DNA of 64,000 nt from contig OY740785.1 in assembly GCA_963514005.1 (NCBI GenBank), positions 68,014,001 through 68,078,000 of the forward strand, given 5' to 3'. The position numbers and the translations under genes were made by a program. This DNA is from Raja brachyura (taxonomy: Eukaryota). Shown piece by piece: positions 3,684 to 52,326 of the stretch. The notes below the pieces were generated by a model. The model had not been told where the DNA came from, searched no databases, and saw only the letters and a list, made by a program, of their open reading frames with translations. Each line of letters opens with the position of its first letter. The stretch's first letter is position 1.

Positions 3684-4406
3684 CCACATAGTTTCCCACC
3701 CAAACCACCCCCTCCCAAGGTACCTTCTCCTGCAAGCGCAGGAGATGCAACACCCGTCTCTATACCTCCACCCTCGACTCTGTCGATTGACCTCGACAGT
3801 TCTTTCAGGTTATGCAGAGGTTCATTTCCACTTCCTCGAACCTCATCTACTGTATCCGTTGTTCAAGATGTGGACTCTTATACATCGGCGAGACCAAACG
3901 TAGACTTGCCGATCGTTTCGTTGAACACCTTCGCTTAGTCCGCCTGGACCTACCTGATCTCCTGGTTGCTAAACACCTTAATTCTCCTTCCCACTCCCAC
4001 ACTGACCTTTCTGTCCGAGGCCTCCTCCATTGTCAGAGTGAGGCTAAACGCAAAGTGGAGTAACAGCATCTCACATTTTGCCAGGGCATGTACATGAATA
4101 TTGATTTCTCTAACTTCAAGTAACCCCTGCATTCTCTATTTCTCCATCCCTCCCCCATCCAAGCCGCACCAACTTCTCGTTCTCATCCAACAAACAGCTA
4201 ACAATGGCCTTTCCTTTATCATCATTAATTTTTTGTATATCTTTCATTCATTGTTCTTATCTCTCTACAAAATTGTCTATATCTCTCATTTCCCTTTCCC
4301 GTGACTTTCAGTCTGAAGAAGGGCCCCAACCCAAAATGTCACCCATTCCTTCTCTCCAGAGATGGTGGCTGTCCTGCTGAATAACTCCAGCTTTTTGTGT
4401 CTGTCT
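3684..4406 (+). mobile_element. Penelope-like retroelement 3' part with GIY-YIG endonuclease fragment
   Basis: ORF 3812-4063 SSNLIYCIRCSRCGLLYIGETKRRLADRFVEH, followed by the pLTR-type repeat. Confidence 0.9.
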
Positions 4407-8909: not shown

Positions 8910-10197
8910 TCAATATTATATTACTAAAAGTCTGATCTTGACCACTTCATGTTTTTCTGTATATTGATTTTAGAAAAAACGCTCCCACTTACGGCTGTGA
9001 TTTTTGGCCATCTTACTCAGAGTCCCCCTCCGCTGTGCAGGACAAGAGGATTTTTACCATCGATGAAAAGTAAAAGATTTATTAGTGTTTAAAAAATGTT
9101 GAGATTATCTCTCCCGAAGGCCACGCCCCTTCCGGAGGGACTATAAAACCCGGAAGTGTTGAGTGCCTCAATCAGTCTTTGCAAGAAGGGGGAGTGAGAG
9201 GGTCACGCCTCTCAGTCTGAGTTGTGAATAACACTGAACACATGTCTATTAAACTGTGAGTGGTTTTACTGACCTGTCAGTGCCCTTAATGTGGTTTGAA
9301 AATATAGTTTGGAAATGCTAAAGCTGTGTTGCCTTTGGTTTGGAAATGCTAAAGCTGTGTTGCCTTTGCTTTGGAAATGCTAAAGCTGTGTTGCCTTTGG
9401 TTTGGAAAAGCTAAAGCTGTGTTGCCTTTGGTTTGGAAATGCTAAAGCTCTGTTGCCTTTGGTTTGGAAATGCTAAAGCTGTGTTGCCTAATTAGAGTTG
9501 CCTTACCTAATTAGAGTTGCCTTGCCTAATTAAAGTTGCCTTGCATAATTAAAGTTGCCTTGCCATTTATATAATTAAAAGTCTAATCTTGACCACTTTG
9601 CTTTATATTGATTTTAGAAAAAACACTACCACGTACGGCTGTGATTTTTGGCCATCTTACTCAAAGTCCCCCTCCGCTCATCAGGTGCAGAGGATTTTTC
9701 GCATCGATGAAAAATAAAGGAGTTTAGTGTTTTAAAAATGTTAAGATTCTCTCTCCTGTCAATCACACCATGAAGGCCATGCCCCCTCTGGTGGGAGGGG
9801 GGGAGGGACTATAAAACCCAGAAGTGTGGGCATGGCTCAATCTCTGCAAGATGGAGGAGGGAGAGGTCATGACTCGCTGTCTTTAGTGGCCTTGCACCCA
9901 GCTTGAAATGGTATGACAGCCCAACAGCCATGAGTGAGTGAGCTGCCAGCACAACAGGCTTGAGTGACTGAGCTGCCAGCCCAAGAATCCATTCGGCCCA
10001 CAAATGTCTATACTGGCCCTCTGGAAACCAGTCCCTTCAGCCAACAACACCCATACTAACGCTCCAGAAAGATTCCCCCCCCCCCCCCCCCGGACCACTG
10101 GCCACCAATATTGGAATTGGTGGAGAGGTGGAATATAGCGTTGAGGGGCCAGCCCTCCCGTGTGATTCTTGGACCCAACAGGGCCCACTTAGTCTAG
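8910..10197 (+). mobile_element. Non-autonomous Helitron, composite with internal duplication
   Basis: A|TC 5' end; 3' hairpin GGACCC...GGGCCC then CTAG|T; no TSD; 5' segment repeated from about 9572. Confidence 0.8.
9307..9565 (+). repeat. Minisatellites inside the Helitron: about 6 x 31 bp, then about 4 x 20 bp
   Basis: Unit gtttggaaatgctaaagctgtgttgcctttg at 9307, 9338, 9369, 9400, 9431 and 9462, followed by cctaattagagttgccttg-type units. Confidence 0.95.
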
Positions 10198-10572: not shown

Positions 10573-10700
10573 TATGGCCAATGTACTGCCCCATAGTCTT
10601 GAACTGAATTAAAACATACAGTAGCTGTAAAGGAGGACATAGTGTCACTTAGAGATTTAAGACTGAAAATGGATAGTTTCTTATTTTTAGTAACCAAAGT

Positions 10701-10754
10701 GGGGTGGGAGATTGCAAACTTCATGTGGTCCGCCCTGTTTCGACAAATGCAATC
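10701..10754 (+). ncRNA. Minimal HDV-like self-cleaving ribozyme fold
   Basis: P1 GGGGTGG/CCGCCCT with G1-U wobble; P2 GATTGCA/TGCAATC; P3 AAC/GGT (one mismatch); L3 TTCATGT; mini P4 T-TTCG-A; J4/2 CAAA. Confidence 0.75.
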
Positions 10755-10839
10755 AACCCAGCATGCACAATCAAATAAGATCAAATAGAACAAGTTGTCC
10801 GACAACTTTAGGCTGCGCATGCCATACGAAAGAAGGAGA
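10701..10839 (+). mobile_element. Short non-autonomous retroelement (Ingi/Vingi-like or RTE-like) with (AAG)-type tail
   Basis: 12-bp TSD AGTAACCAAAGT at 10689-10700 and 10840-10851; ends ccatacgaaagaaggaga. Confidence 0.8.
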
Positions 10840-10891
10840 AGTAACCAAAGTTAGCAACATACAATTTTTTGTGTGTTGGAAAACAAAATAT

Positions 10892-18152: not shown

Positions 18153-18624
18153 TAACATGCCTATCAATTAAGGTGCTAAGTTGCAAACCATTGTTGCTTG
18201 TTTTTAAATCTGCATAATTTACTGTTTAAGTGATGATTAAAATATTGCAATAAATTGAAAGACTGACAAAGGCGCAACAAGTACAGAAAGGCACAAATGT
18301 TACCATGTCGCCTCTAGCTTTAGACACTCCACTAACAAAATGCATAAACGAATGGACAAACATGGAGATAAAGTGGATTACAACAAATGAAAATGAGAAA
18401 TCGGTAGAATGAATAGATAAACAGATTGGTTAAATAGCAAAAAAAAACAACTGTTGGTACACTGGAATCCGGCTGAATGGTATATAAAAAGCTATGCATG
18501 CAAATTCACCAAGGAATTGGGAAAGCAATTTGCACATTTCAAGATGGCTAAAGTTAAAAAAGTAGGGAAGTCTTGCTGTGTTGTAGAGAACATTAGTGAA
18601 TACAATAAACATTGAATAATACAA

Positions 18625-18790
18625 TCTTCTTCTTATCGAGTCCACACACAAGATTAGAAGTTGTTCAGCCAGAGCTGAACACACTTCTCGGCATCTGCAT
18701 ACAATGGTGTCTGTCTTGCGCTTCTTGTGCGTGGTGGTAGAAAGATTGGTGAAAACAGGGCCGCGACGTGAACGATCTTTCCTTTACTTC
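18625..18790 (-). mobile_element. Short non-autonomous retroelement with degenerate HDV-like 5' fold and (AAG)n tail, inserted in an old CR1
   Basis: AATAATACAA at 18615-18624 and 18791-18800. Minus strand reads GGAAAGA-TCG-TTCACGT-CGC-GGCCCT-G-TTTTCA-CCAA-TCTTTCT and ends aagaagaaga. Confidence 0.7.
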
Positions 18791-20471
18791 AATAATACAA
18801 TAACATTGAATAATACAAGCAATTTTGGTCTCCATACCTTATCTGCCCAGTGGAGGGGACAGCATAGTTTCACTGATTGATTTCGGGGATAAGGGGGTTG
18901 TCCTATGAGGGCAGAGCGAGTGTGATTGGTTTTCACTTGCTAAAGTTTAGAAGAATGAGGGGTGATCATTAACACATACAAGATTCTGAGAAGGATTGAC
19001 AGGATGTATCTGATTGCAAAGTCGAGAAGACTTTGGTGTCAAGCCAGTAAGAACAATTGAAACTGAGATCAAGAGGTATTTGGATGCAATGAAAATGTGA
19101 GAGCTCAGAGATCAGGCAACAAATTCAATGAGGTATAGACTGGCCATGATCATACACATTGGTGCAGCAGTCAGAAGATCTAAATCTACTTTGATTCACT
19201 ATGTTCTTAAATTATAAGGGAAATTAAGAAATACTATTTCCAGTGATCAATAAATCAGTAAAACAAGAGCAAAAACTTTAAGGTCATCACCAAAGGAATT
19301 AAGGAACTGTGGATTGTTGGGTTTTAAGAAGCCCTAACAGTGCACCAATGGTGGACTCAAAATCATGGCTTCACCCAGAAGTAAAAAGTATAAATAGTTA
19401 AGCAAGGAAAACATTAAAAAAATCTTAACATTTTTGTTTTTCCTCTTTCTTGTGAATGCTCAGATGAGTAGATATTAAAGAGGGAAAGGACTTCATTGCA
19501 AGGTTCTCTATTTGAAATGTTATCAGTGACACAGACATGACAAGGCAAAAGGACTACTAATTGTGCTGTAATTCCTGTTATTCTCTGATAAAGAAATCCT
19601 GGACTTTGGCCAGTCAGACAGAGCACTGAACTGTTAAGCCCTAGTGAATGACAATGAGTAGAGTGCGTTGTTGACAAATGAATCTTTTTTAAAGTTTGGT
19701 TCATTTGTAATTTAATCATGACTGAAACCCTTTAAACCACACATAATTCTGAATGGGAAATAGTTGGGCAGACAACCACAGAATACACCTCGTTCAACAT
19801 AATACATACGGAGTAATATTTCTGCAATAGGCTAATATAAAATTCTGGAAGCACCCCCAAGAATAGAGGCCAAATAATGTTAAATGATTAATTATCATCA
19901 AATGACTGCTTGAACCATGTATTAGGTTTTAGCCTCATTAAAGCTATTATTTTAGAGCATTAAGTGTTGAATTACTTAGCAGAATTTTCAGTGATATTTA
20001 AATTTTTGCAACCAATAATATTATTCTTATAAATCAACATTTAGAATGGGGATAAATATATTTGAAAATTATGTGGATACTGAAAGATACATAAGAAATT
20101 GACTCAGTAGCCCAGAAATTAAATTGGAGTTAATAAACCCTGGACAGCTTCACAGCCCCTCTTGCCAAACAATAATCTACCTTCTCAGCAACATGCTTGG
20201 CTATATTGCAATTAGGTCAGACTTGAAAACAAGGTAAACTCCGTCACTACCCCTCACCACAGCCCCCAACATCAGATCAAATACCGTCCCATGTTGGGAA
20301 GTAGACATTTGAAATTTCAATGTAGTAATACTTGCTTTATGGTGCATGTAAAAAAAGTGCATTGGATCCATAAATATTGTATCAAATCTAGGTAGAACAG
20401 GCCCCTCATTCCTAATCCCAATCCATCCCCATAATCCTGCAAATTATTCCTTCAAATTTCCTTCCAATTCT

Positions 20472-22739: not shown

Positions 22740-23520
22740 CCACAGTCGGAATCCGGTGGCCTCTTGGTCCGGGTTGAGCGATAAACTGCACGGTTTGAGA
22801 CGCTCTGTACTTCGGGAGGCGAGAGGCTTGAGAGCGGCGAGCAAAGCTGCCGCTGGAGCCCACCAGCCGTGCAGAGGGGAGAGAGAGCGAAGCTCCGCAT
22901 CTTTCCCCACAGCCCGCTCGCAGCGAGGGGACACAGAACACTGAACTCGGGGCCAAGTTCCCATCTGGAGAGAGACACCTGGAATTAAAAGGAAGCCCCA
23001 GACCAGAGACACCTGGAATCAACAGGACGCTCCACAAACACCCAACTTCAAACACGAACCCGCGCCGTGGGTGCGCGACTTGGCTGCAACTCTGTGCAGT
23101 CCCCGGGAATGAGTGCGGGGACTTCACCCGCTACAACACCTCGACAGCCCCGTCCCCCTACCTTGGCTCAGCCGTGCCAGGGTCGGTAGCCGGAATTTGC
23201 CGACGACCATGTCTAGCGGTAGAGACACCGAGCTCCATTTGATATCAGTCGTGCCCGAAGACTTGTCCATTTTCCGGCATCATATCGTGTGCCGCGGGTT
23301 GGCAACGTGCGAGAGGCTCGCAGCTCCTGCAGACCCGGCCAGGCTTGCACCGCACGCCATGTTGCAGGCGGCCAGCGCCTCCCCCCGCAGCGCTGCGCTG
23401 CACTGCGCCCCCCTCGCCAGAGAGTACACCCCCTCCCCTCCCCTCCCCACCCCACCAAGCCCCGCCACTGCCCGCCCGCCCACCCTCTCCGCACCGGCGC
23501 TGCCCGGCACCGCCTACACT
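22740..23520 (-). promoter_or_regulatory. CpG island / promoter and first-exon region of the GAREM-family gene
   Basis: Locally GC- and CpG-rich, apparently non-repeat sequence around the exon, with GC boxes (CCGCCC) upstream. Confidence 0.7.
23162..23270 (-). CDS. GAREM2: First coding exon of GRB2-associated regulator of MAPK (GAREM/FAM59 family), most like GAREM2
   Basis: Translates MDKSSGTTDIKWSSVSLPLDMVVGKFRLPTLARLSQ(G), matching the GAREM N-terminal pattern WS...PLD...RLP as I recall it; RLPTLA favours GAREM2. aaaATGG start context; phase-1 donor CAAG|gtagg. Family is more certain than paralogue. Confidence 0.8.
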
Positions 23521-27227: not shown

Positions 27228-30200
27228 TTTTATTTTTATTTTAATATTTTTATTTATTAGAGGTAAATACATCAGTGTACATCACATATATATTATTACA
27301 ATCATTGTACCCCATAATTTTATTTTAAAGAAAAAGAATAGAAAGAAAGTGAAGTAGGTGAAAAGAGTTGTGAAAGTGAAAGAGCATGCCAAAGGGGAGA
27401 GAAAAAAAAACAAACCCTTGGTCAAAGAATTAGAGAAAGGGGATTAAGAGATAGACCCTAGAAAAGAAGATGAAAAGAAAGAGAGACAAAGAGAAATTAA
27501 AAGCCAGTTACTATATTATATATATCACTCAAAAGGAATCCACCAACTCGATAGTTTTTCATCCCTCCCACCAAGACCCGAGGTGCTCCTGCACCCTATC
27601 TTTGTAGCAATTCTATAAATATAGACCACGTCTGATAGAAGCGATCTGATTTTCCTGCCAGGCGGAGTCTCATATCTTCCAGATGTAATGTTTCAAACAT
27701 AGTTGAAATCCACATATTTAATGTTAGTATAGGAGCATTTTTCCAAAATTTTAAGATTAGCTTTTTTCCTATTATTAAGCCGTAATCAAATAGATTATTT
27801 TGATATACATTTAATTCCAAACTACCTTCTGTCATTCTGGCGGGGAAATTTGCAAAGGCCACTGGGGAGACTTTAAACTAGAATGGTTGGGGCGAGGGAT
27901 GCAAATAGCAAAAGCTAGTAGACAGAATGGGAGGCAGGAAGCAGAAAAGGGAAGCACTCGGACACAAGAGGAGAAAGAAAAAAAAGGAAATAAACAGAGA
28001 ATAAGAGATGGGGGGTTTCTTAAATGTGCATATTTTAATGCTAGGAGTATTGTAAGAAAGGTGGATGAGCTTAGAGTCTGGATAGACACCTGGAAGTATG
28101 ATGTTGTGGCAATCAGTGAAACATGGTTGCAGGAGGGCTGTGATTGGAAACTAAATATTCCAGGATTTCGTTGCTTCAGGTGTGATAGAATTGGAGGGGC
28201 AAGATGTGGAGGTGTTGCATTGCTAGTCAGAGAAGATATTACAGCAGTGCTTTGGCAGGATAGATTGGAGGGCTCATCTAGGGAGGCTATTTGGGTGGAA
28301 CTGAGAAGTGGGAAAGGTGTAGCAACACTTATAGGGGTATATTATAGACCGCCAAATGGGGAACGAGAATTGGAAGAGCAAATATGTAAAGAGATAGCAG
28401 ATATTAGTAGTAAGCTCAAGGTAGTGATTGTGGGAGATTTCAACTTTCCACACATAGACTGGGAAACACATTCTGTAAATGGGCTGGATGGTTTGGAGTT
28501 TGTAAAATGTGTGCAGGATAGTTTTTTGCAGCAATACGTAGAGGTGCCTACTAGAGGAGGGGCAGTGCTGGACCTCCTGTTAGGAAATGAGACGGGACAG
28601 GTGGCGGAGGTATGCGTTGGGGAGCACTTCGGGTCCAGTGATCACAATACAATTAGTTTCAATATAATTATTGAGAAGGACAGAACTGGGCCTAGGGTTG
28701 AGATTTTTGATTGGAGAAAGGCTTACTTTAACGAGATGCGAGATGATTTAAAAGGAGTGAACTGGGACATTTTGTTTTATGGGAAAAATGTAGAGGAGAA
28801 ATGGAGGACATTTAAAGGGGAAATTTTAAGAGTACAGAATCTTTATGTTCCTGTTCGGTTGAAAGGAACCAGTAAAAATTGGAAAGAGCCCTGGTTTTCA
28901 AGGGAAATTGGACATCTTGTTTGGAAAAAGAGGGAGATCTACAATAATTATAGGCAGCATGAAGTAAATGAGGTGCTTGAGGAGTATAAGGAATGTAGAA
29001 AGAATCTTAAGAAAGAAATTAGAAAAGCTAAAAGAAGATATGAGGTTGCTTTGGCAAGTAAGGTGAAAGTAAATCCGAAGGGTTTCTACAGCTATATTAA
29101 TAGCAAAAGGATAACAAGGGATAAAATAGGTCCATTGGAGAGACCGAGTGGACAGCTATCTGCAGAGCCAAAAGAGATGGGGGAGATATTGAACAATTTC
29201 TTTTCTTCGGTATTCACCAAGGAGAAGGATATTGAATTATGTGAGGTAAGGGAAACTAGTAGAGTAGCTATGGATACTATGAGTTTCAAAGTAAAAGAAG
29301 TACTGACACTTTTGAAAAATATAAAAGTGGATAAGTCTCCAGGTCCTGACAGGATATTCCCTAGGACATTGAGGGAAGTTAGTGTAGAAATAGCCGGGGC
29401 TATGACAGAAATATTTCAAATGTCATTAGAAACGTGAATAGTCCCCGAGGATTGGCGTACTGCGCATGTTGTTCCATTGTTTAAAAAGGGTTCTAAAAGT
29501 AAACCTAGCAATTATAGACCGGTTAGTTTGACTTCAGTGGTGGGCAAATTAATGGAAAAGATACTTAGAGATAATATATATAAGCATCTGGATAAACAGG
29601 GTCTAATTAGGAACAGTCAACATGGATTTATGCCTGGAAGGTCATGTTTGACTAATCTTCTTGAATTTTTCGAAGAGGTTACTAGGGAAATTGACGAGGG
29701 TAAAGCAGTGGATGTTGTCTGTATGGACTTCAGTAAGGCCTTTGACAAGGTTCCTCATGGAAGGTTGGTTAAGAAGGTTCAACTGTTGGGTATAAATGCA
29801 GGAATAGCAAGATGGATTCAACAGTGGCTGAATGGGAGAAGCTAGAGGGTAATGGTGGATGGCTGTTTTAATCGGGTTGGAGGCAGGTGAGTAGTGGGGT
29901 GCCCCAGGGATCTGTGTTGGGTCCTTTGTTGTTTGTCATGTACATCAATGATCTGGATGAAGGGGTGGTAAATTGGATTAGTAAGTATGCAGATGATACC
30001 AAGATAGGGGATGTTGTGGATAATGAAGAGGATTTCCAAAGTCTACAGAGTGATTTAGGCCAGTTGGAAAAATGGGCTGAAAGGTGGCAGATGGAGTTTA
30101 ATGCTGATAAATGTGAGGTTCTACACCTTGGCAGGACAAATGAAAATAGGACGTACATGGTGAATGGTAGGGAATTGAAGAATACAGTTGAACAGAGGGA

Positions 30201-32111
30201 TCTGGGAATAACCGTGCATAGTTCCTTGAAGGTGGAATCTCATATAGATAGGGTGGTAAAGAAAGCTTTTGGTATGCTAGCCTTTATAAATCAGAGCATT
30301 GAGTATAGAAGCTGGGATGTAATGATAAAATTGTACAAGGCATTGGTGAGACCAAATCTGGTGTATGGTGTACAATTTTGGTCGCCCAATTATAGGAAGG
30401 ATGTCAACAAAATAGAGAGGGTACAGAGGAGATTTACTAGAATGTTGCCTGGGTTTCAACAGCTAAGTTACAGAGATAGGTTGAATAAGTTAGGTCTTTA
30501 TTCTCTGGAGCGCAGGAGGTTAAGGGGGGACTTGATAGAGGTCTTTAAAATGATGAGAGGGATAGACAGAGTTGATGTGGACAAGCTTTTCCCTATGAGA
30601 ATAGGGAAGATTCAAACAAGAGGACATGACTTTAGAATTAAGGGACAGAGGTTTAGGGGTAACATGAGGGGGAACTTCTTTACTCAGAGAGTGGTAGCGG
30701 TGTGGAATGAGCTTCCAGTGGAAGTGGTGGCGGCAGGTTCGTTGGTATCATTTAAAAATAAATTGGATAGGCATATGGATGAGAAGGGTATGGAGGGTTA
30801 TGGTATGAGTGCAGGCAGGTGGGACTAAGGGAAAAAAGTTGTTCGGCATGGACTTGAAGGGCCGAGATGGCCTGTTTCTGTGCTGTAATTGTTATATGGT
30901 TATATGGTTATTCCGAAAATAATCCATTCTGGCTTTGGTGTCATTTTTATTTTAAACAGTTTTGTGAAAATTTCAAAGATTTCAATCCAAAACCTTTGAA
31001 TTTTTGTACAAAAGATGAATGAATGCACTATAGTAGCTTCTTGACTGGCATTTATCACAAATTGGCGAGGCGTTGGGGAAAAATTTATTTAATTTGGTTT
31101 TTGAGTAGTATAATATGTGTAAAATTTTAAATTACATTAAAGTGTGTCTTACGTTAATTGAGCATTTGTGCACATTTAATAAGTACTCTTTCTACCTTTA
31201 ATTGGAAATTTTTATGCTTAGTTCGTTTTCCCACTCACCTCTGATACCTTCCGTTGTTGGTATTACTGCATTTAGTATATAATATTATATATATGAAATT
31301 AAATTTGCTGATGCCGCCTTGTATTCATTACTTGACCTAGTAAGTCTAATGGCATATTTGGAAATATTTAAAATACTGATTGTTACCCAGCTTGTATTTT
31401 AGTTGTAATTGTTTAAATGATAATAGTTTTCCCGTATCATACAAATCTCCCAAAATTTTAATTCCTGCTCTTTCCCATTGTATAAATTGAGGGTTTAAAA
31501 GAGGGTTTTTAGCAATAGGAGATAGGAGAGATAAGTTTCTTAATTTCTTAATTTTAAGTTGTATTTTATTTGTTTCCAAATTCTAATTGTACTATGTATA
31601 ATTGGGTTTTTGTTGTAGTTTGTATTATTCACCATCTTTGGTGAAAGAAGGATCGCACCAATATTAAAGGGGGAGCAGTCCTCTTTCTCGATAATGATCC
31701 ATTCCGGTTGATGAAGAGAATTATCCAACAATTGAATCATATTTCTAATATTTACCGACCAATAATAATACATAACATTAGGGAGTGCTAATCCCCCTAC
31801 TACTTTGGGTTTATTCAGGTGTGGTCTTTGTATTCTATGGGACTTATAATCCCAAATAAAATTTGTAATATCTGAGTCCAATTAAAAAAAAAAACTTTTT
31901 GGGTAGATATAATGGGATTGATTGGAACAAGTATAGAATTTGTGGTAGAAAAATCATTTTTATGGCATTTATTCAACCTATTAAGGACATCAGAAGCGTT
32001 TTCCAGAATTTAATTAAATTATGTAGTTTCTTAAGTACAGGGTTATAGTTTGCTTTAAACATGTGTTAATATCTTCTAGTAATTTCAATACCCAAATATT
32101 TAAATTTTTCC
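27228..32111 (-). mobile_element. 5'-truncated L1-clade LINE interrupted by a CR1
   Basis: TSD GAAATTGGAAGTATTAT at 27211-27227 and 32112-32128; T-rich tail on the left; ORF2 C-terminal pieces FIWDYKSHRI, GGLALPN, KKLILKFWK. Confidence 0.85.
27836..30909 (+). mobile_element. CR1 LINE with near-complete but inactivated ORF2 (APE endonuclease + RT)
   Basis: [40 protein letters not shown]; stops at 29435 and 29843 plus a frameshift; (gttatatg)n tail. Confidence 0.95.
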
Positions 32112-37357: not shown

Positions 37358-40300
37358 TTTTACTTCAGAGTCACGTTAGTGACTACGTGAAGAAGCCTCG
37401 TCAGGCGCATGCGCGTCATTATGTCCAACGCATGGCGCACCGACGGGCTGGGGAGCGCAGCTCCACCAGCGGTAAGTAGCAACCCGCAGGTAAGTCAACG
37501 TTAAACCTTCCCTGCGAGGATTTTAAACTCTGTAAGTCTGGCTCGGAAGCCAGCAAGGGTTAGTGCTATGGAGGGTGTTGCAAATGTAAACTGCTGTAGT
37601 AGGAGCGGAACGCGGGGGGACCGCGGTTACTGCTTATAGATCGGGTTGGGAGATAATGGTTGCACTAATGCCGGCTCCACGATTACAGCTTATAGATCGG
37701 GTTGGGAGATAACGGCTGCACCAATGCCGGCTCCGATACCGGCTACTGTTTCTATCTAATAGCTCAACTGCCTCCATCAGTTCCAGTGCTTCAGGGCACT
37801 GAGGCCACTCCACCAGGGAGGAAGGCGAAAACAAAGTCCTCTCAGGCCCATCTTATCTAATGGGCCTGATGATGTGGAAGACTCCCCTCCTTTTACTATA
37901 AAGGTATGGGGACGACTCAACCAAATGGGAAAAATGCTCCAAACTTAATGAACCATGTAAAATTTCAATCGGGGTCGAATGCCCCTAGGGATCCCCACAC
38001 AGCCTCTCGCAGAGGTCCATACAGCGAAGAAGAATACACCGCTTATGGATACCAGTGGGAATCACCCTCTCCAACACCTTGTTTAGGGCTGGAAGAGTCC
38101 TCCCTAGAGCAAGACTCGGGAGAGCCAGGGCAGGAGGAGTCTGACCCTGAAGCTGGTGTCACTGCTTTTGAGCACACACCAGAGTACATGATCCATGCTC
38201 CAGGTGTCCCGGGCGTAGCAAGGAACTTCGCTATTCCGGAAGGGATGTGAGGCCATGGAAGAAAACCTGGCCACCAATGTTAATTATATGGCTTCTCACC
38301 AGCTCCAGGATGAAGAAGACCTGTTAATTGTGCATCGCTCAAAGTGCCCACCGTGAACTCTGCTATATGGGCACAAATTAGTGCAACGATGCGTGGACAA
38401 GAAATCAGGCAGCGGCTCCTCAAGTTGGTGGCAGCAGGCATCACTGCATTTGTAAAATGGTCTGGGGGGGGCACCAATGTCTGGCACACAACAAGATATG
38501 CTGGCCCTGTTCTGTAACGCATATTTTGAGGTCAACTGCATAAAACAGTTATAAAGCCGATGCTGAACCCGAAATTTGCAGCTTTGTGTAGGTCCACCAA
38601 CATCCAAGCCCCAGATTATTTATTTGGGGTGGACCTCCTCAAACAAGTCAAGGACCTGGTGGAAGAGGCCAAAACAATCGGTCTCATGAAGACATACGTC
38701 CTTTCTGCCAGGATGCCACCTCGCAGGTCATTTTCAACGCGAAGGGGGTCGGATCCAGGGGCAGAGCCAAGCAGAGCGGGGCCAGTGGGACGACGGTATT
38801 ACCCACCTGTGTATCCCAGCTACAACCCCAATATGGGAAGAAGGAGGACTTTGAGGCCGATTGTAGAGGTACAGGCGATTCATTCTGTCCAGGATAAGAT
38901 TTCTGGGGAACATCCTCCGGTTGTGGGTAGGTTGCAATTGTTTTATGATGAATGGTGCTGCATAACATCTGATCGGTTTATACCACACACTGTGTCAGGC
39001 TCTCGAATAGAGTTTATGTCAGGAATTGTTCCGCCTGTACAAAATATGCCAAATAGAGTATTGTTTTTTTCTGCACCAGAAACTCAGCAGGTAAAAGAAG
39101 AAATTATGGTTTTGTCCCAAAAAAGGGTAATTGAGAGGACGACAAACCATCCTCAACAATTTGTGTCCAATATATTCCTCAGACAGAAAAAAAGATGGGG
39201 GAATGTAGAGTCATTCTGGACCTAAACCAGTTAAATTCCTATGTTCAGTATAGGCATTTTAAAATGGACACCTTCAATACTGCGAAAAAACTGTTATCAC
39301 AACGCTGTTATATGGCAACCATAAATCTGAAAGATGCATATTACTCAGTACCAATTCATCATCAGGATCGGAGATACTTGAAATTTAGTTGGATGGGACA
39401 GCTGTGGCAATTTAAAGCATTACCCAATAGGTTAACCTCAGCTCCTAGGCTGTTCACTAAATTGTTGAAACCAGTGCTGGCGCTACTTTGGGCCCAGAAT
39501 CACATTGTAATGGCTTATCTAGATGATATTTTAATCATAAGCAACACTCAGGAGACAACTGAGGGATCGGTTTCAACAACCAAACACCTGTTTGAAAGGT
39601 TAGGGTTTCTGGTCCATCCAACAAAATCCAAGTTAGAGCCATCCCAAAAAATTGATTATTTGGGATTTGTCATTGATTCAGTTGATACGTCAGTGACTTT
39701 GCCTACAGCCAAGGCTGTGGAGATCAGGGAGGTCTGTACTAGTCTCACTGAAAAACAATATCCCTCCATCTGGGAAGTAGCCAGTGTTATTGGTAAATTG
39801 GTGGCAGCTTTTCCTGCAGTGGAGTTTGGACCTCTGCACTATCAAAGTCTGCAACGACTAGAGAACAAGCACTTAAAGAACATGCAGGTCATTTTGATAG
39901 ACCTATGCAGTTACCAACCAGAGCCATAGCAGAATTACAATGGTGGATTATCAATATTGTACAAACTACCAAAAACATTTTGGTTCAGCAACCTTCAGTG
40001 CTTTTACAAACAAATGTGAGTGCTCTGGGATGGGGAGCTACGGACAGCGAGTCTAGCTATGGTAGTAGATGGAGTGTGAAAGAGGATTTAATCCTGCACA
40101 GGCATGGTATAAATTACTTAGAATTGCTGTGTGCATTCTATGGATTAAAAGCTTATTGTACAACAATGAGTAATTTACATGTTCAACTCCAGATTGATAA
40201 TACCACGGCTGTGGCATATATCAATCACATGGGAGGAATAAGGTCAGTATCATGTGATAATCTGGCTAACCTCATGTGGCACTGGTGTATTTCTAGAAAC

Positions 40301-41895
40301 ATCTGGGTCTCAGCTATCTACCTACCAGGGAGAGATAATGTGATGGCAGACAACAGGTCACGAAAATTTAATGACAACATAGAATGGATGTTAAATCCTG
40401 ATGTTTTTAAACTGATTGTCAGCCACAATGGTTTGCCAGATATTGATCTGTTTGCATCCAGGCTAAATCACCAGTTGCCTAATTACGTTGCATGGGAACT
40501 AGATCCAGGAGCAGTAGCGGTGGATGCATTCTCGCTACATTGGGGACGTACATTCTTTTATGTTTTCCCCCATTCTGCCTGATTAGGCAATGTCTCACCA
40601 AAATAGAGCAGGACTCCGCCTCAGGCGTTTTGGTGGTTCCGGACTGGCCTACACAGCCATGGTTCCCATTGGTGCTCAGAATGATGACTCAGCCATTCAT
40701 GGCTGTCCCCAACTGCAGTAATTTGTTGGTGCATCCAGTAACAGGAGAAAGTCATCCATTACATGATCATATTAATTTGTTACTCTGCAGGTTCTGACCA
40801 GAGCGTTCCAAGGCCTTGGACTGTCAAATAGGACCATGGATGTGATAACTGCAGCTTGGAGAGATAGCACCAAGAAACAATATGTGTCTCATATTAAGAA
40901 ATGGGAGATGTGTGTTTACAGTCAGGTATATCTTATCATACTGCAAGCATACCGGATATATTGGAGTTCCTTGCTACATTGCATTTTGATGAACACTTGA
41001 GTAATAGTGCCATTAATAGTGCTCGGAGTGCTTTGTCCTCCTATTTAGGGCAGTTTCAGAACAACAACCTATCGGGTCTCATGCATTAGTGTCCCGATTC
41101 ATGAGAGGAATCTTTAACAAAAATCCTCCTAAGCCTAGATATACAGAAATCTGGGATGTCAGTATAGTTCTCACACTGCTTCAGCAATGGGCTCCAATTA
41201 CGTCATTGTATTTTTCAGAAGTTAACACTTAAAGTGGTTAAGGTCATGGGGCTAATATCAGCGCAACGAGTGCACACATTGGAACAGTTACGACTAGATA
41301 GCATGTATTCTTCTGCAGATAACATTACGTTTTATGTGTATGATTTAATCAAACAAAGCAGGCCAGGAATGGCCAGAACCAAAGTAAGCTTTAAAGCATA
41401 CCCTGTTGACCAAACGTTATATGTAGTTAAGCACCTGAGTCAATATATCGAGGTAACTAAGAGTCTCAGAAACTCTTAGACAGCAATGCTCATCAGTCAC
41501 AAAAAACCTCATTAAAAGGTGTCAGTATAAACTATTTCTAGATGGTTAAAACAGGTATTGGATTCTGCTGGAGTAGACACTCATGTGTTTAAATCTCACT
41601 CCACCAGGGCGACATCAACATCCGCAGCGAGGCCGCAGGATGGTCTAAGGAATCAACTTTTTCTAAAATTTATGATAAACCTGTCCTGACAGTGACAGGG
41701 TTTGGGCATGCTGTTTTGGGTTCCGTTTGATTTGATTTGCTTTGTCTTTATAAATTTCATTTGTAATTTCCCCTGGGATAGAGGGGTTATTACTGTTTTG
41801 TTATTTAAAAAATGATTATTGGATAATTCAAAGCAATGTTCAATACATTATTTATTCACTACTGTGTCAACTGAAGCAGTGTGTCGTATGGACTT
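37358..41895 (+). mobile_element. DIRS-type tyrosine-recombinase retrotransposon, decayed, 3' terminus missing
   Basis: gag-like region 38200-38900; RT (HFKMD, LKDAY, AYLDD) 39195-39929; RNase H (HINYLEL, IDNTTAVAYIN); DLFASRLN and FPPF methyltransferase-like block; recombinase remnants (SAINSARSAL, ISAQRV, cactccaccagg = HSTR) 40830-41730. Confidence 0.9.
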
Positions 41896-42257: not shown

Positions 42258-43051
42258 TGTAGATGATTATTGCATGTCCCTTTAATTGTAGTTACATAGC
42301 TCTGCTAACCACTCCCCTATAATCAAGTATATCTGTGTCTTCCCATCCCCTAGCTCTCTCTCTAATGAACGTGACAGACCATGTACAGCTATGGCAGTAA
42401 TGTGTGTGTAGTTAATAAAGCTACAGTAAAGAATTCCTTGTGTGCGTGCATGTTCTTGACATGGCGTCAGAAGCTTCTTTTCCTGCGTCTCCTGTATATC
42501 GGGTTTTGTTTCTTTAGTCCCAGTTACCCTTCCCTGACTGGTTATGGCTTCCTCCTGCCGTAAGCCAGACCCGCTGATCTTCGACGATGACATTGCTCAC
42601 CGCTGGAATGTCTTCCGTCGTGATTTTGAGCACTATGTCGCAATCGCCCACCCTGCGGTGGCCCCAGCTATTAAAGCCTCCCTCCTTCTAAACCTGGCCG
42701 GTCCGGAGGCTCTGGAGCGCTCCGAGTCGTTCGTTTACGGGCTCAACGAGAGCGCCCAGGACCCGGTGTGCCTGGTCGAAAAGTTTACCGAGATGTGTGA
42801 TGTTCCCACCAACTCCATTCTGGAGCGCTTTACGTTTTTCGCGCGCCGTCAGAACCCTGGTGAGTCTGTGGACAATTTTGTCACTGCTTTGCGGCACCTA
42901 GCTAGACGGTGTAACCTGGGTGCCGCGACAGAAACCCTGACCCGCGATGTCTTGGTGTATGGTCTACGGGACGAGAAACTGCGCTCAGACCTCCTGTGCA
43001 AGCCTGATTTAACTTTCCACGAGGCTTTGCACGCCTCCAGGCTGGCAGAGG
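42258..43051 (+). mobile_element. Truncated Gypsy-type LTR element: 5' LTR, PBS and gag
   Basis: LTR TG...CA at 42258-42461 with AATAAA; PBS TGGCGTCAGAAG; gag from 42544 MASSCRKP...RRQNPGESVDNFVTALR. Confidence 0.85.
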
Positions 43052-43597
43052 GTGTGAGGAGGATGCTAGGAGGCTGCAAGGTGACTTGGATAGGCTGGGT
43101 GAGTGGGCAAATGCATGGCAGATGCAGTATAATGTGGATACCAGACTGATTCCTTGGATGTCAGGACTTTCATATGAAGAAAGACTGGATAGACTCAGCA
43201 TGTACTCGCTAGAATTTAGAAGATTGAGGAGGGGTCTTATAGAAACTTACAAAATTCTTAAGGGGTTGCAGGAAGATTGTTCCCGATGTTGGGGAAGTCC
43301 AGAACAAGGGGTCACAGTTTAAGGATAAGGCGGAAGTCTTTTAGGGTCAAGATGAGAAAAACATTTTTCACACAGAGAGTGGTGAATCTTTGGAATTCTC
43401 TGCCACAGAAGGTAGTTGAGGCCAGTTCATTGGCTATATTTAAGAGGGAGTTAGATGTGGCAGTTGGGATCAGGGGGTATGGAGAGAAGACAGGTACGGG
43501 ATACTGAGTTGGATGATCAGTCATGATCATATTGAATGGCGTTGCAGGCTCAAAGGGCCGAATGGCCTACTCCTGCACCTATTTTCTATGTTTCTAT

Positions 43598-44299: not shown

Positions 44300-45699
44300 A
44301 GGCCCTGTCTCACGGTGCGAGTTGACCCACAAGTGACCCAGAGTGACAGACTCGTGGTTGTGTACGATATTCCAAGTTGATGTTCAAGTGTTTGAGGCGA
44401 GTTCCCACGGGTATGGTAAGTTTGCCGTTTACTTGTACTTTCTGCGATGTTCCGAGTTCGTCTCCAGAGTTACCAAGTTCCCCTCCCGTTTGCTCTTGAG
44501 TTACAAGTTCCCCTCCTGCTCAGGGCGTGTGTTGTTGCCGCAGTCCGGGATTCGCATTTAAAGCATTCGGTTATCTTCAGCAGTTCAGGCGAGGACAGGT
44601 TTTGGGGGGGGGGGGGGGGGGGGGGGGGCGAGGGATGGTGGAATTGGGAGAAGGCAAAGACTATGGGTGGGGAGGAGTAAGAGGGGGGCTAGGAACGGCA
44701 TCTGCGAAACGGGTAGTCAACCTTTAGGGTCCCGGCCCGAAACATCCCTATACATTTTATGATTTCCCTCCAAAGATGCAGTCTCCCGTGGTTTGTTTGC
44801 ACAACTCTCTTCCCTCTCTCTCCCAACATTGGGGGGGGGGGGACGACGACAAGATAGTTTAAACGGACCTTACCCCCACTTCATGCTTCTGTTGCGCATA
44901 ATTCAGCAGTAAAACCTCTCTTCCCCTTACCCAGCGACGCCCGATTCCTCGCACCCCCACAAGTTCACATCGACGAGAGAAGAATGAGCGGGGAGTCTGA
45001 AGAAGGATCCCGACCCGAAACATCACCCATTCCTTCTCTCCAGAGGCGATGCCTGTCCCGCTGAGTTACTCCAGCATGTTTGTGTCTATCGTCGGTGTAA
45101 ACCAGCATCTGCAGTTCCTTCCTACACACGGACAGTGAAGTGCCTCGGCCAAATTACGAACATTAGGATTCTCTGATGTGAAGGTAGTCTGGTTTGCGTT
45201 TCTTACACTTGATCATATCCGAAACTAAAGTATAGATAGACACAAAATGCTGGAGTAACTCGGCGGGACAGGCCGCATCTCTGGAGAGAAGGAATGGGTG
45301 GCGTTTTGGGTAAGTCTGAAGAAGGGTCTCGACTCCATTCCCTCTCTCCAGAGATGCTGCCTGGTCCGCTGAGTTACTCCAGCATTTTGTGTCTATTAAA
45401 GAGTTCCCACGGTAGACGCACGAATCACTAAACTTAACGCACGGGCCACTACGATATAACTCTGAGTTTAAATGTTTCAATTTTAAACTTGACCTGAGAA
45501 ATTTGACTCGTGGAAAAAGTCAAACATGTTTTACTTTTTTCACGAGTTCACAAGTTTCACAGGTACCTGCCGTTAGCGCCACGAGTGGACAAGTTGATCG
45601 CGCGAGTTCCGACGTTCCCGTTACGTTGGCTGTACGTGATCACCACGAGTGAAAACTCGGGGTCACTCGTTGGCCAACTCGCACCGTGAGACAGGGGTT
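44300..45699. mobile_element. PIF/Harbinger-type non-autonomous transposon with nested Penelope repeats
   Basis: TIR ccctgtctcacggtgcgagttg at both ends; TAA at 44297-44299 and 45700-45702. Confidence 0.8.
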
Positions 45700-46788
45700 T
45701 AAACACCACTATTGTATCTACTTTCAACCACCCTGGCATTGTGTTTCGTATTTCCTCTTCAAACAACCCTCCACTTCAAAAATACAGAGTAATCAATTGT
45801 ACTTCTGGGAAGAATGATTGTAATTGGACAGTTCAACTTTTAAAATTTGGACTTGACTGGGGAACTTGAGATTTTTGTGGGGAGAGTAGGTAGTTTGAAG
45901 TTGCAGCCATGGCCATGTGAAAGAGCTCAGCCTCTGAATTCCCGGTGGCTGCATGTTTGTTGAATGGCATGGCATGGGACCTACTGCAGGCTGCAGCTGA
46001 GCAGTACACCAGGGAAGTGACATGTCAGATGATGCAGTCCAGTGCCATGCTGAAGGACACTGGGAGTCTGGGGCTCAGGTGAACAGAAAAAACAATAGTG
46101 CATTTTCATAAGCCATGTATCGGGTTGTGAAATGAACAGCCTAAGAATTGATAAGAAAATGTAAAGTGGGTAAATCCAATGCTCAAACTGGGACTGCAAC
46201 AAATTATAGGAAAATATATATTGGAATATGAATAAACAAGAGAATGTTTCTTTGTTATAGATTATAGGAACAATGAAAATATGAAGGGCCAAGAGTCCAT
46301 AGATGTAAAGGTTATTTTCTTTTTGGAGACAATACAAAAATATAGAATAAAAGGCTCAAGGTCAAACCTTTTGTGCTCTTTTAATTTAATTTCAAGCCTG
46401 ACGTCAAATGGTATACCAAACAGTTAGGTGCATTTTTGAAAAGGTAAGGATAGAACAGAGCACTGAACCTTCACTTCAGTTGGCACGTTGCTTGAAATAA
46501 CTATTGAAATCATAAAGCCCAAAAGTCTCACCTTCCTCTGGCGAGCAAAACCAAGCCTAAAATATTCCTCCTAGCATTCTTTTCCAAGTTTAAATTCTAG
46601 GTACAACCGGTGGCGCCATGTTTTAGGTGAGAACAGCGCCAGATCAGCTCCGTAAAAATCTGTTAAAAAAACGGGGCTAAAGGAGGGTGCTAACGCTACT
46701 TACCGCAGGAGATAGATTAAAAACGGCTCCGGTGCGATTGAAGGCTGTGTGACGTCATCAGGCGCGCGACTTCGGTAAGAAATTTAAA

Positions 46789-47922
46789 ATGCAGCCCTCC
46801 TCCCCTCCCCTGAAGAAAACGGGCCTAAGAAGAGAGGCTGGCACCACCAAAGCCTCGGGCTCGAGTCTGACTGCCTCCCAGGAAGAGATCTCACAGAGGA
46901 AAGTGGAAATGGAAGAGTTCAAAAATTCCTTGATAGGTGAGATGAAGAAACTGGTGAAAGAAATAAAAGATCTGAAGAAGGAATATAAAGATGAATTTAA
47001 AGACATGAAGAAAGAATATAAAGATGAAATAAAAAATCTAAAAGCGGAGATTCTGGTGTCTCAGGAGAGAATTAAAGTGGAATTAACAAAAGAAGTTACT
47101 GAGACGGTAAAGATTATGATGAGCGAATGGAAAAGTAAGACGGAGGCTGAATTTCAAAACCGATTCTCTGAGATAAACGACAAGGTTGCTGGGTTGGAAC
47201 AAATGCTGAATGATAAGATAGATCCTATTGCCATTACAATTGACCAACACAATGAAGCACTTAAAGAACTGGCTAATTTTGCTGTAACAAGTGCCAAGGA
47301 AAGTGAGAAGTTACGTGCCGAGAATAAACGCCTCTCAGAACTACTTCGCAAAATAAATGAGAAATGTATTGATTTGGAGGGCCGACAAAGACGTAAGAAT
47401 TTGCGAATTGTAGGATTGACCGAAGGTTGTGAAGGAAATCAAGACCCACGAAAATTTGTTGCAAAACTCCTAAAGGACATTCTGGAATTGGATGAAGAAC
47501 CATTGTTGGGCCGTGCCCACAGGGCTTTAAGACGGGTCCCTGGGAGAGGTGCACCACCCAGACAAATGATTGTAAAGGTGGTGTATGATCACGTCTTTGA
47601 AGATATGATGAAGATAATAATGAGAAAGAGAAATTTGAAATACGAAGGAAATAACATTAGTATCTTCAGAGATTACCCAGCGGAAGTTGCTAAGAGAAGA
47701 TCCTTATTCACTGAAACAAGAGGCATTCTACGGAATTTAAAGAATACAGTGGATCTCAGATATGGTTTGATGTACCCAGCAACACTGAGAGTGACCTATG
47801 ACAACGAGGAACACCGCTTCGTTAAGCATACTGATGCATTGAAGTTCGCTCAAGGCATACAGAAGAAGGCAGAAGAGGAGGAAGCAGACGATGAACCACG
47901 GGAGGAAGAAGACAACGACTGA
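46789..47922 (+). CDS. L1 ORF1p (coiled coil, RRM, CTD), intact
   Basis: 377 aa; DLEGRQRRKNLRIVGL, RAHR, IFRDY, YGLMYPATLRV. Confidence 0.9.
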   Translation: MQPSSPPLKKTGLRREAGTTKASGSSLTASQEEISQRKVEMEEFKNSLIGEMKKLVKEIKDLKKEYKDEFKDMKKEYKDEIKNLKAEILVSQERIKVELTKEVTETVKIMMSEWKSKTEAEFQNRFSEINDKVAGLEQMLNDKIDPIAITIDQHNEALKELANFAVTSAKESEKLRAENKRLSELLRKINEKCIDLEGRQRRKNLRIVGLTEGCEGNQDPRKFVAKLLKDILELDEEPLLGRAHRALRRVPGRGAPPRQMIVKVVYDHVFEDMMKIIMRKRNLKYEGNNISIFRDYPAEVAKRRSLFTETRGILRNLKNTVDLRYGLMYPATLRVTYDNEEHRFVKHTDALKFAQGIQKKAEEEEADDEPREEEDND

Positions 47923-48535
47923 ACATTTTGGACTTTTATCATTAACCTGCGGTTATGAATTATTCATTGAGAAAGAGGGGAAATAATGGGAATGTAGTAG
48001 TAGTTTGGTATCAATTTGTAGAATTTCAATAATTCCCCTAACATAGTATTATTTATTATAATACTAATTACAATAGAATAGTAATTAATAAATAGTTTCA
48101 TGAATAATAGAAATAATTACTAAATCCTTAAAGTTAGTACCCCACCCCAATATACACAGTATTCTAGTTGGGAGCTGGAATATTTAACATCTTCTTTAAA
48201 CACGGAAGTCATTAGATTAATCGCCACGTTAGTGTGGCGTTCACTAACACACACTACACAATCTATCAGTGTAGTCTTTTTTTTCTTTGGGCACCCTTTT
48301 AACACCCTTTTTTCTTTTTTCACTTACATTTTCTATTTTTTTTTATATATTAAGTATTTGAATTTATGTTATATATTATATGAATGTAATTATGAACAAT
48401 ACCGTATAACTATTTTAGGTAGACATGGATATGGATTATTGAGATTGGTAATTTTCGTCGTGTTGGCGTTTGGGTGCCTTGTTGAGCTGGAGGGGCCGAG
48501 AGGGCTACTCCAAAAAAAACCACCCTAATACTAAA

Positions 48536-51500: not shown

Positions 51501-52326
51501 TAGAGCACCTCTATAGAAATGGAAAATTTCTTTCATTTCAGGAGTTACAAGATATCTACGGATTGTCTTCACAGCATTTGTTTAGGTATTTCCAAATTAG
51601 AGATTATATTAAATCTAATACACAGGATTTTAAAAATAAAGAACCAGGATTATTAGATGAATCGTTTAACTGGCATCCAACCACAGAAAAATTAATAGCT
51701 TATATATATATAACATCATTATGGATAAGGAGAATCCAATAACTGAAACATATCGTCAAGCATGGGAAAATGAAATTGGATCACCTATAACCAAAGAAAA
51801 TTGGGAAGAAAGTCTACAACGAATACACCGGTGCTCGTTAAATGCTAGACATATATTAATACAATTTAAAGTATTATACAGATTACATTATTCGAAAACC
51901 AAATTAAATAGTATATTTCCTAATCTCTCCTCTATTTGTGATAAATGTAAGAATTTAGAAGCAAATTTAACACACAGTTTTGTTACATGTCCTAAATTGA
52001 ATTATTATTGGACAGAAATTTTTTAAGTTATTTCTGAAGTTCTTAAAGTTCAATTAGAACCTGACCCAAAGCTAATAATACTGGGAATTCCAGAGGCTAA
52101 TTTGATATTTACACTAGATCAAAGAAATTTCCTTGATTATTGTTTGATATTAGGGAAAAAAATAATATTGAAATTTTGGAAGGGAACATTATCCCCAACA
52201 ATTAAAATGTGGGCATCAGAGATGTTGGAGACGTTGCAGTTGGAAAGAATCAGATTTGTCCTTTTGGACAAGTATAATTCTTTTGAACAGATATGGTCTC
52301 CATATATACAGTATTTAGAGAAGTAG
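48536..52326 (+). pseudogene. L1 ORF2p (APE, RT, CCHC) with one frameshift and one nonsense codon near the C-terminus
   Basis: SWNVKG, FLQETH, SDHAP, QGCPLSP, YADD, CDKC...H...C; extra 2 nt in the (TA)n run at 51701-51711; in-frame TAA at 52024-52026. Confidence 0.9.

Follow-up and report, generated by a model that had tools for sequence, protein, structure and literature searches.

The HDV-like fold on the minus strand at 18790-18626 raises the question of whether it serves its host gene as an intronic ribozyme, comparable to that of mammalian CPEB3, or belongs to a mobile element that inserted there. We followed this question through the whole stretch of 64,000 nucleotides (hereafter the window) and through public contigs. 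We consider it probable that this is a copy, now dead, of a non-autonomous 165-nt retroelement built from both ends of a LINE, likeliest one of the Vingi clade.

Anatomy of the element and its host intron

The element occupies 18790-18626 of the minus strand (165 nt) and is a single copy of a very high-copy short retroelement. The HDV-like parts that an earlier note had described for 18625-18790 were all found in their places. On the minus strand, the place of the P1 5′ strand (18785-18790) reads GAAGTA in the window copy and GGGGTC in the family, with the predicted cleavage site just 5′ of 18790. It is followed by a 2-nt J1/2 (18784-18783), the P2 5′ strand (18776-18782, pairing with 18745-18739) and P3 (18775-18773 with 18765-18763), which encloses the 7-nt L3 (18772-18766). 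The 6-nt P1 3′ strand (18757-18762) comes next, then G-T at 18756-18755 as P1.1 partner, a 5-nt linker between 18755 and 18749 where P4 would be, the C-C-A-A of J4/2 (18749-18746) and the P2 3′ strand (18739-18745), in which 18739 is a change private to the window copy. P2 crosses P1 and, in the window copy, consists of six Watson-Crick pairs and one G·T. P3 has two pairs and an outer T·C mismatch. The conserved places of L3 hold U, C and G; P1.1 is made of one C-G pair plus U·U. The presumed catalytic C, 18749, opens J4/2 and is followed by N-A-A; no variant reaches 10% of the depth at this position. P4 is absent, with 6 nt separating the P1.1 G from the catalytic C both here and in the second HDV-like element of the window, at 10701.

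Downstream of the head, a folded body spans 18643-18734 on the minus strand. Its 12-bp closing helix (18734-18723 with 18654-18643), an inverted repeat, surrounds an inner hairpin (18688-18657). The body fold reaches -39.8 kcal/mol (z -4.67), and none of 200 shuffles was as stable. The 3′ terminus (18626-18642) ends in CGAT and then an (AAG)3 tail at 18634-18626. Two 11-nt copies of a target-site duplication (TSD) flank the element on the same strand, at 18791-18801 on the 5′ side, inside an 18-19-nt tandem repeat, and at 18615-18625 on the 3′ side. The 10-bp TSD claimed earlier is thus plausible (11 nt exact, or 10 if the first A belongs to the tail), but it is not unique: a duplication of 25/26 nt at the same site (18818-18794 versus 18624-18599) gives 25 matches and one gap, with 17 nt exact. 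The TSD length is ambiguous because the site is a tandem repeat and the longer duplication also fits. No tRNA-like head with Pol III boxes is present, the family beginning at G1 of the ribozyme fold with no room for one, and ARAGORN found no tRNA genes in the window.

The host gene is GAREM2. Its first coding exon lies at 23162-23270 of the minus strand (36 codons plus one nucleotide), with a GT donor at 23161. The 36 codons (23270-23163) match GAREM2 of cartilaginous fish, best at 97% to a skate protein (E 7e-13; 11 matches among 18 candidates); no Pfam match was found in the 36-residue exon. With three of these 11 proteins as queries, tblastn retrieved residues 1-38 only and, in the rest of the window, nothing better than E 0.4; a short-motif scan of the window for exon 2 was also empty. 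Because tblastn finds only residues 1-38, exon 2 would lie beyond position 1 and both elements in intron 1. The position claimed earlier, sense in a GAREM intron 1, therefore holds, with the gene specified as GAREM2. Relative to this intron, the element at 18790-18626 is sense and the one at 10701 antisense.

The sister element covers 10689-10851 of the plus strand including its 12-nt TSD, and the element proper is 10701-10839. It has an intact 7-bp P1, no P4 and one P3 mismatch, followed by a closing helix, an inner hairpin, and CGA with an AAG-type tail. Its P3 mismatch is in the middle position, and a 1-bp P4 closed on a UUCG loop is possible. Reading the stems of both elements from coordinates, we find both bases changed and pairing retained in five of seven P2 pairs, which bears out the covariation proposed earlier; the inner P3 pair and the sixth P1 pair are also swapped. 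The whole elements align at a score of 62 versus a maximum of 50 in 300 shuffles, and the bodies alone at 18, which six of 300 shuffles reached. By these sequence comparisons, the two are related families. Rfam gave no ribozyme family on 10670-10800, and no second copy of either element was found in the window by blastn or nhmmer.

How far such a fold exceeds chance depends on the descriptor. The core without P1, in a form composed after both elements had been seen, matches only these two loci in the window and nothing in 60 shuffles; with P1 added as a requirement, only the 10701 element passes. With looser L3 descriptors, shuffles contained on average 0.047, 0.22 and, at the loosest, 2.04 matches per 64 kb. 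At the 0.047 setting, seven of 150 shuffles had one match and none had two, and at the loosest 133 of 150 matched. The loosest core by itself is not above chance, and the fold of a single copy is no proof alone; we take it as real because of the family evidence from contig depth and 5′ ends given below. Replacing the catalytic C in the descriptor left no matches with G and 0-1 with T. The corresponding control with A matched the same two loci and is uninformative, since the 5-nt junction option slides the register. The stability of the head is nothing unusual (z +1.74 in ViennaRNA, whose model excludes pseudoknots). Elsewhere, pattern scans of viral contigs gave no match in three of three scans, and prokaryotic genomes gave one, in a Bradyrhizobium MAG. 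The 26 pattern matches in metagenome contigs were taken as chance, since their flanks are unrelated and blastn aligned none of them to the element over more than 22 nt.

A dispersed family and its 5′ end

Contigs from four of 21 listed public runs were aligned to 18400-19000 at 80% likeness. In the three genomic runs, 4806, 4829 and 5748 contigs cover the element, which bears out the claim that it belongs to a family. Summed depth is 2.2-3.0 × 10^5 within the element versus 2-17 in the flanks, a ratio of 1.8 × 10^4 to 1.1 × 10^5 that is no copy number; we take it to mean no more than very many copies. On the 3′ side, contigs depart at 18625-18628 into random flank (agreement 0.34-0.36). The element is thus dispersed, multi-copy and non-coding, with a TSD and a 3′ tail, as expected of a non-autonomous derivative. 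In run X16, guessed to be RNA, 203 contigs lie over the element and none over the flanks, and these contigs show neither strand nor ends; 19 contigs from it, likewise without strand, continue past the predicted cut site. No empty-site joint was seen among 15 of the 21 joints; a further 596 loose-end rows and 15,592 pieces fall outside that set. One joint, 18584-18934, was considered as an empty site and rejected, its short side being only 20 letters.

At the 5′ end, 157, 136, 139 and 19 contigs depart behind 18784 among the loose ends listed for the four runs. In all four, the consensus of these ends opens with the complement of GGGGTC, 6-7 bases before 18784. Agreement over 30 letters is 0.47-0.48, compared with 0.34-0.36 in flank, as fits 6-7 conserved letters. 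GGGGTC at the loose ends therefore indicates that the family starts at G1, the HDV cleavage site. The earlier note had predicted exactly this, a family 5′ end near GGGGTC that restores P1, and other copies carry it in the exact register. In the family, GGGGTC pairs fully with the P1 3′ strand through four Watson-Crick and two wobble pairs, including G1·U. A hexamer that starts with G and pairs fully with this strand occurs at 74 of 127,988 window positions, a chance of about 6 × 10^-4.

Family depth also clarifies the other stems. At 18739, the base that the family carries in about 99% of depth makes a G-C pair and gives P2 seven Watson-Crick pairs. P3 forms only two of its three pairs, and at 18775 and 18763 alternative bases stay below 10% in the four runs. 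The P3 mismatch reported earlier is thus borne out as such, but not as a detail of this copy: T·C is the family majority.

Some contigs depart from the common pattern within the aligned region. Between 18642 and 18729, individual contigs of the family lack 32-90 bases of the body, as deletion derivatives would. At 18718-18719, each genomic run has 54-68 contigs whose sequence parts from the element behind 18718, a sign of at least one other subfamily. The stretch 18925-18987 holds another repeat fragment, of lower copy number (summed depth 100-700 versus 4-15 in flanks).

Proposed mechanism and parent LINE

We propose that a source copy would be transcribed inside a host transcript, where its P4-less HDV-like head would fold and cut just before G1, giving a unit-length 5′ end. 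The head would remain on the cut RNA, so each new copy would regenerate the whole ribozyme; the sharp 5′ end of the family would follow from this. The reverse transcriptase of a LINE would then bind the folded 3′ body and the AAG tail, and target-primed reverse transcription would insert the copy with a TSD of about 11 nt, as the anatomy suggests. The scheme is modelled on R2 and L1Tc as described in the available parts of PMC8256844 and PMC3383444. The P1 of the family is within the normal range, cleavage in this class mapping to the first base of a 6- or 7-bp P1 according to the part of PMC4908430 consulted.

Whether the heads still cut is another matter. Single changes strongly affect the 3-bp P3 of CPEB3 and HDV, as stated in the section of PMC9901934 at hand, and by that analogy the family-wide P3 mismatch argues for slow or no cleavage; the two wobbles in the 6-bp family P1 also count against an active head. 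The head could accordingly be a relic, kept as an internal promoter or a protein-binding site, with transcription start setting the 5′ ends. The mismatch in so little tolerant a stem, repeated in P3 of the 10701 copy, is consistent with this, as are two precedents in the portions of PMC3383444 and PMC4035085 available: the ingi/L1Tc head (Pr77) is both promoter and ribozyme, and some tested SIDER heads are inactive. However, P1, P2, L3, the P1.1 G and the catalytic C are all retained and the 5′ end is at G1, and the two-sided changes in five of seven P2 pairs between the families would be unneeded by a DNA promoter. We thus regard a relic head as unlikely, though it survives better than any other alternative to a self-cleaving one, and estimate cleavage activity of P4-less heads to be somewhat on the likely side.

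The parent of the element is the next point, as Vingi remains an inferred driver. Two-ended derivatives have been reported only for RTE, Ingi, Vingi and R2. The HDV-like core is printed in the supplement of PMC5786205 (Kojima 2018) over bases 2-74 of Vingi-2_Gav, right at the 5′ end of that element, and at Vingi-4_Crp 1-64 (decayed), Vingi-1_BF 8-69 and Vingi-2_SPur 395-451. By eye, the core of our element matches these four printed heads and P2 and P4 do not: all four keep P4, and the element shares nothing with them in P2. The Vingi link rests on the core, and function also constrains that core. Taking core and build together, the assignment is likely. The ribozymes from sea urchin and lancelet tested by Webb in 2009 reportedly correspond to these Vingi heads. 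We also presume that Vingi elements end much like the 10701 element.

A parent among RTE or Ingi elements, with the mechanism otherwise unchanged, is less probable still than a relic head. Ribozymes at the 5′ end and two-ended derivatives have been attributed to both groups. RTE ends in the supplement of PMC5786205, as far as it was consulted, typically have microsatellite tails, and the 8 nt preceding the tail of the window copy recur in BovB-type RTE 3′ ends. Yet the RTE ends seen there carry further conserved pre-tail bases that both window elements lack, and the 10701 sister is without the 8-mer. Moreover, the L3-P3 core stands in Vingi rows only, the L3 heptamer occurring three times, always in such rows, in a file that prints few extreme RTE 5′ ends.

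The build of the Vingi-derived element that we favour has close parallels. The Vingi-1_EE derivatives, RIME, NARTc and the R2 SIDEs are likewise short and non-coding, with a ribozyme-like 5′ end at the boundary, a folded 3′ end, a tail, a TSD of about 11-12 nt (11-12 nt in L1Tc) and a high copy number. Unlike the Vingi and Ingi derivatives and the R2 SIDEs, the head described here has no P4 and a 6-bp P1. SINE2-1_AMi of alligator, a tRNA head joined to a Vingi 5′ end, shares with the element the length and sequence of the P1 3′ strand, and with both window elements a short body and CGA plus a purine tail; in contrast, as printed in the same supplement, it has the tRNA head in front, keeps P4 and shows two changes in L3. 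Kojima labels its 3′ end ‘unknown’ in the entry of PMC5786205.

No autonomous element sharing both ends was found in the window, and the window LINEs share no end with the element. The window nevertheless holds several other mobile elements. A near full-length two-ORF LINE at 46753-52326 (+), presumably L1/Tx1-like, has a 389-residue ORF without a Pfam match, then an endonuclease-RT frame of 1096 residues. Another endonuclease-RT LINE, with stops, lies at 27815-30828 (+); many 3′ fragments occur elsewhere in the window, and we take it to be CR1/L2-like. At 38530-41479 (+) is a fragmented RT-bearing element (RVT_1, E 1.8e-18) whose neighbouring frames have no Pfam match and whose appearance strikes us as DIRS-like. 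A GIY-YIG fragment at 3791-4063 (+; E 3.9e-4, under the Pfam cut-off) probably comes from a Penelope-like element. Two similar gag-like frames without Pfam matches, at 42538-43149 (+) and 58154-58735 (-), are presumably LTR-retrotransposon remnants. Finally, the long inverted repeats at 45234-45396 and 401-559 are head-to-head copies of a common short repeat with weak miRNA-type Rfam scores, and 9307-9489 holds a tandem duplication of a unit of about 93 nt, the two copies being 97% identical.

State of the window copy and the link to CPEB3

The copy in GAREM2 has lost what the family retains. Its hexamer GAAGTA offers the P1 3′ strand one Watson-Crick pair, two wobbles and three mismatches, and no fully pairing substitute strand was found up to 600 nt upstream, only one weak one at 546 nt. 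The window copy is almost surely unable to form P1, as its letters stand, and so inactive, in line with the earlier view that it probably was. P1 is also the CPEB3 stem most sensitive to change in the part of PMC9901934 consulted. Apart from three of its first six bases (at 18785, about 90% of the family depth differs), the copy departs from the family majority at 18739 and at 18752 (67% of depth, run X1).

Three substitutions within 6 nt would arise by drift with a probability of 1.5 × 10^-4 to 3.8 × 10^-3 at 2-6% divergence, and drift alone is an unlikely cause of the loss. The head may have been inserted whole and changed later, the 11-nt TSD ending one base before the G1 register. Alternatively, truncation and fill-in from the tandem target may have produced the present end, 18801-18788 matching the 3′ flank at 13 of 14 positions. 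The same site is seen in organism D, where one contig spans the 5′ junction with 40 bases of the element and 216 of the flank; its flank differences are 8/252 and 9/256. A contig of organism E extends fewer than 31 bases into the family-shared part and is weaker evidence of a shared site than that of organism D. It has 14 gap letters within 18758-18798, their place hidden by family depth, which may bear on how the 5′ junction formed. In the order of events that we propose, the element would have entered GAREM2 intron 1 in sense orientation before organisms A and D separated. Its P1 5′ strand would have been destroyed at or after insertion, so that this copy would not cut the GAREM2 pre-mRNA.

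Nevertheless, the comparison with CPEB3 that had been drawn for this locus has a basis. The best Rfam match on 18690-18830 is the CPEB3 ribozyme (RF00622), at 10.7 bits versus a cut-off of 35 (E 2.8); over the whole window, Rfam returned five miRNA-type matches under their cut-offs, none of them at either element. The element shares with CPEB3 17 consecutive identical bases through P3-L3-P3-P1 and, after a one-base gap, the same U-G-U; L3 is identical to the consensus, P1.1 is likewise a single C-G plus U·U, and both lie sense in an intron. On the other hand, the element has another P2, no P4, a P1 of 6 rather than 7 bp and the outer P3 mismatch. CPEB3 is a single conserved locus, whereas the element is a dispersed repeat, whose window copy is without its P1 5′ strand. 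With 10.7 bits and a place in GAREM2 of a skate-like fish, not in intron 2 of mammalian CPEB3, it is no member of the CPEB3 ribozyme family.

A functional intronic ribozyme that tunes GAREM2 splicing in the manner of CPEB3 would be sense in intron 1, as this copy is, and the 17-nt identity and the same site in organism D speak for it. With three of six P1 positions mismatched in the most change-sensitive stem of CPEB3 (as worded in the accessible text of PMC9901934) and no full substitute strand within 600 nt upstream, we judge it very improbable. The functional likeness claimed earlier fails for this copy: P1 cannot form, the copy is one of many thousands dispersed, and no conservation is shown beyond that of the flanks. 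Equally improbable, and largely refuted by the family data, is a chance look-alike of the HDV fold in an ordinary SINE: 10.7 bits against a cut-off of 35, shuffles that match the loosest descriptor and a head z of +1.74 would fit it, but the P1 strand was predicted beforehand and found at the exact register (chance about 6 × 10^-4), there is no room for a tRNA head, and the fold persists in a second family whose stems differ.

The link between the Vingi-derived element and CPEB3 looks like one of shared ancestry through Vingi, not of shared function. By eye, the Rfam CPEB3 consensus and the gharial Vingi-2_Gav, as printed, agree at 36 of 38 bases (positions 2-39) and at 12 of 12 after P4, that is 48 of 50. 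Their numbering coincides from base 1; P2 and J1/2, both free to vary, are included in the agreement, P2 being identical. Since P2 varies among the Vingi families themselves, its identity points to descent and not to convergence. Homology between CPEB3 and Vingi heads is, on these alignments, very probable, and it suggests that the CPEB3 ribozyme is a captured Vingi head. SINE2-1_AMi, in its printed form, resembles the CPEB3 consensus too, P4 arms included. We did not find this origin stated in the literature searched, which included little subscription literature, and it may already be in print. According to a 2021 study, the CPEB3 ribozyme is not known from outside mammals and lacks outgroups (PMC8233481).

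The absence of P4 and the very short J1/2 and L4 recall the minimal HDV-like (drz-Mtgn) and theta ribozymes of about 52 nt (Kienbeck 2024, PMC10879173, in the part consulted). Tailed phages account for nearly 99% of these ribozymes, often directly beside tRNAs, whereas the element heads a vertebrate retroelement, in a vertebrate intron and a window with no tRNA genes, and is thus not a theta ribozyme. Among eukaryotes, that survey, in the part cited, screened human, mouse and protists. LINE derivatives that are non-autonomous and headed by a ribozyme are already known (NARTc, RIME, SIDE), and the literature searched held no paper on such element families in cartilaginous fish. A P4-less head in a vertebrate retroelement would be new, as far as searched; Repbase or Dfam may already name the family.

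If such heads cut, orientation should matter. Fast intronic ribozymes lower splicing yield (PMC10919898, as excerpted), which would favour broken heads in sense orientation. That sense intronic copies survive mainly with a broken head appears to us an evenly balanced proposition; the two copies of the window agree with it, and two copies are an anecdote. Taken jointly, at least two Vingi-derived skate families with working P4-less heads in tens of thousands of copies, an orientation filter and a P4-bearing Vingi head ancestral to CPEB3 make up a picture that we put forward tentatively, as somewhat less probable than its failure in one part or another.

The copy itself would be inert, and the interest lies in the minimal head and in the CPEB3-Vingi lead. 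P4-less minimal HDV-like ribozymes, almost only known from phages in the literature (PMC10879173, in the part consulted), gain a likely role in a vertebrate retroelement. The many thousands of natural copies amount to a ready-made mutational data set, with which the purging of ribozymes from the sense strands of introns can be tested directly. Vingi is in use as a gene-writing platform (PMC13708176, in its available part) and, if the Vingi assignment holds, these 140-165-nt passengers show the least cis sequence that Vingi may need.
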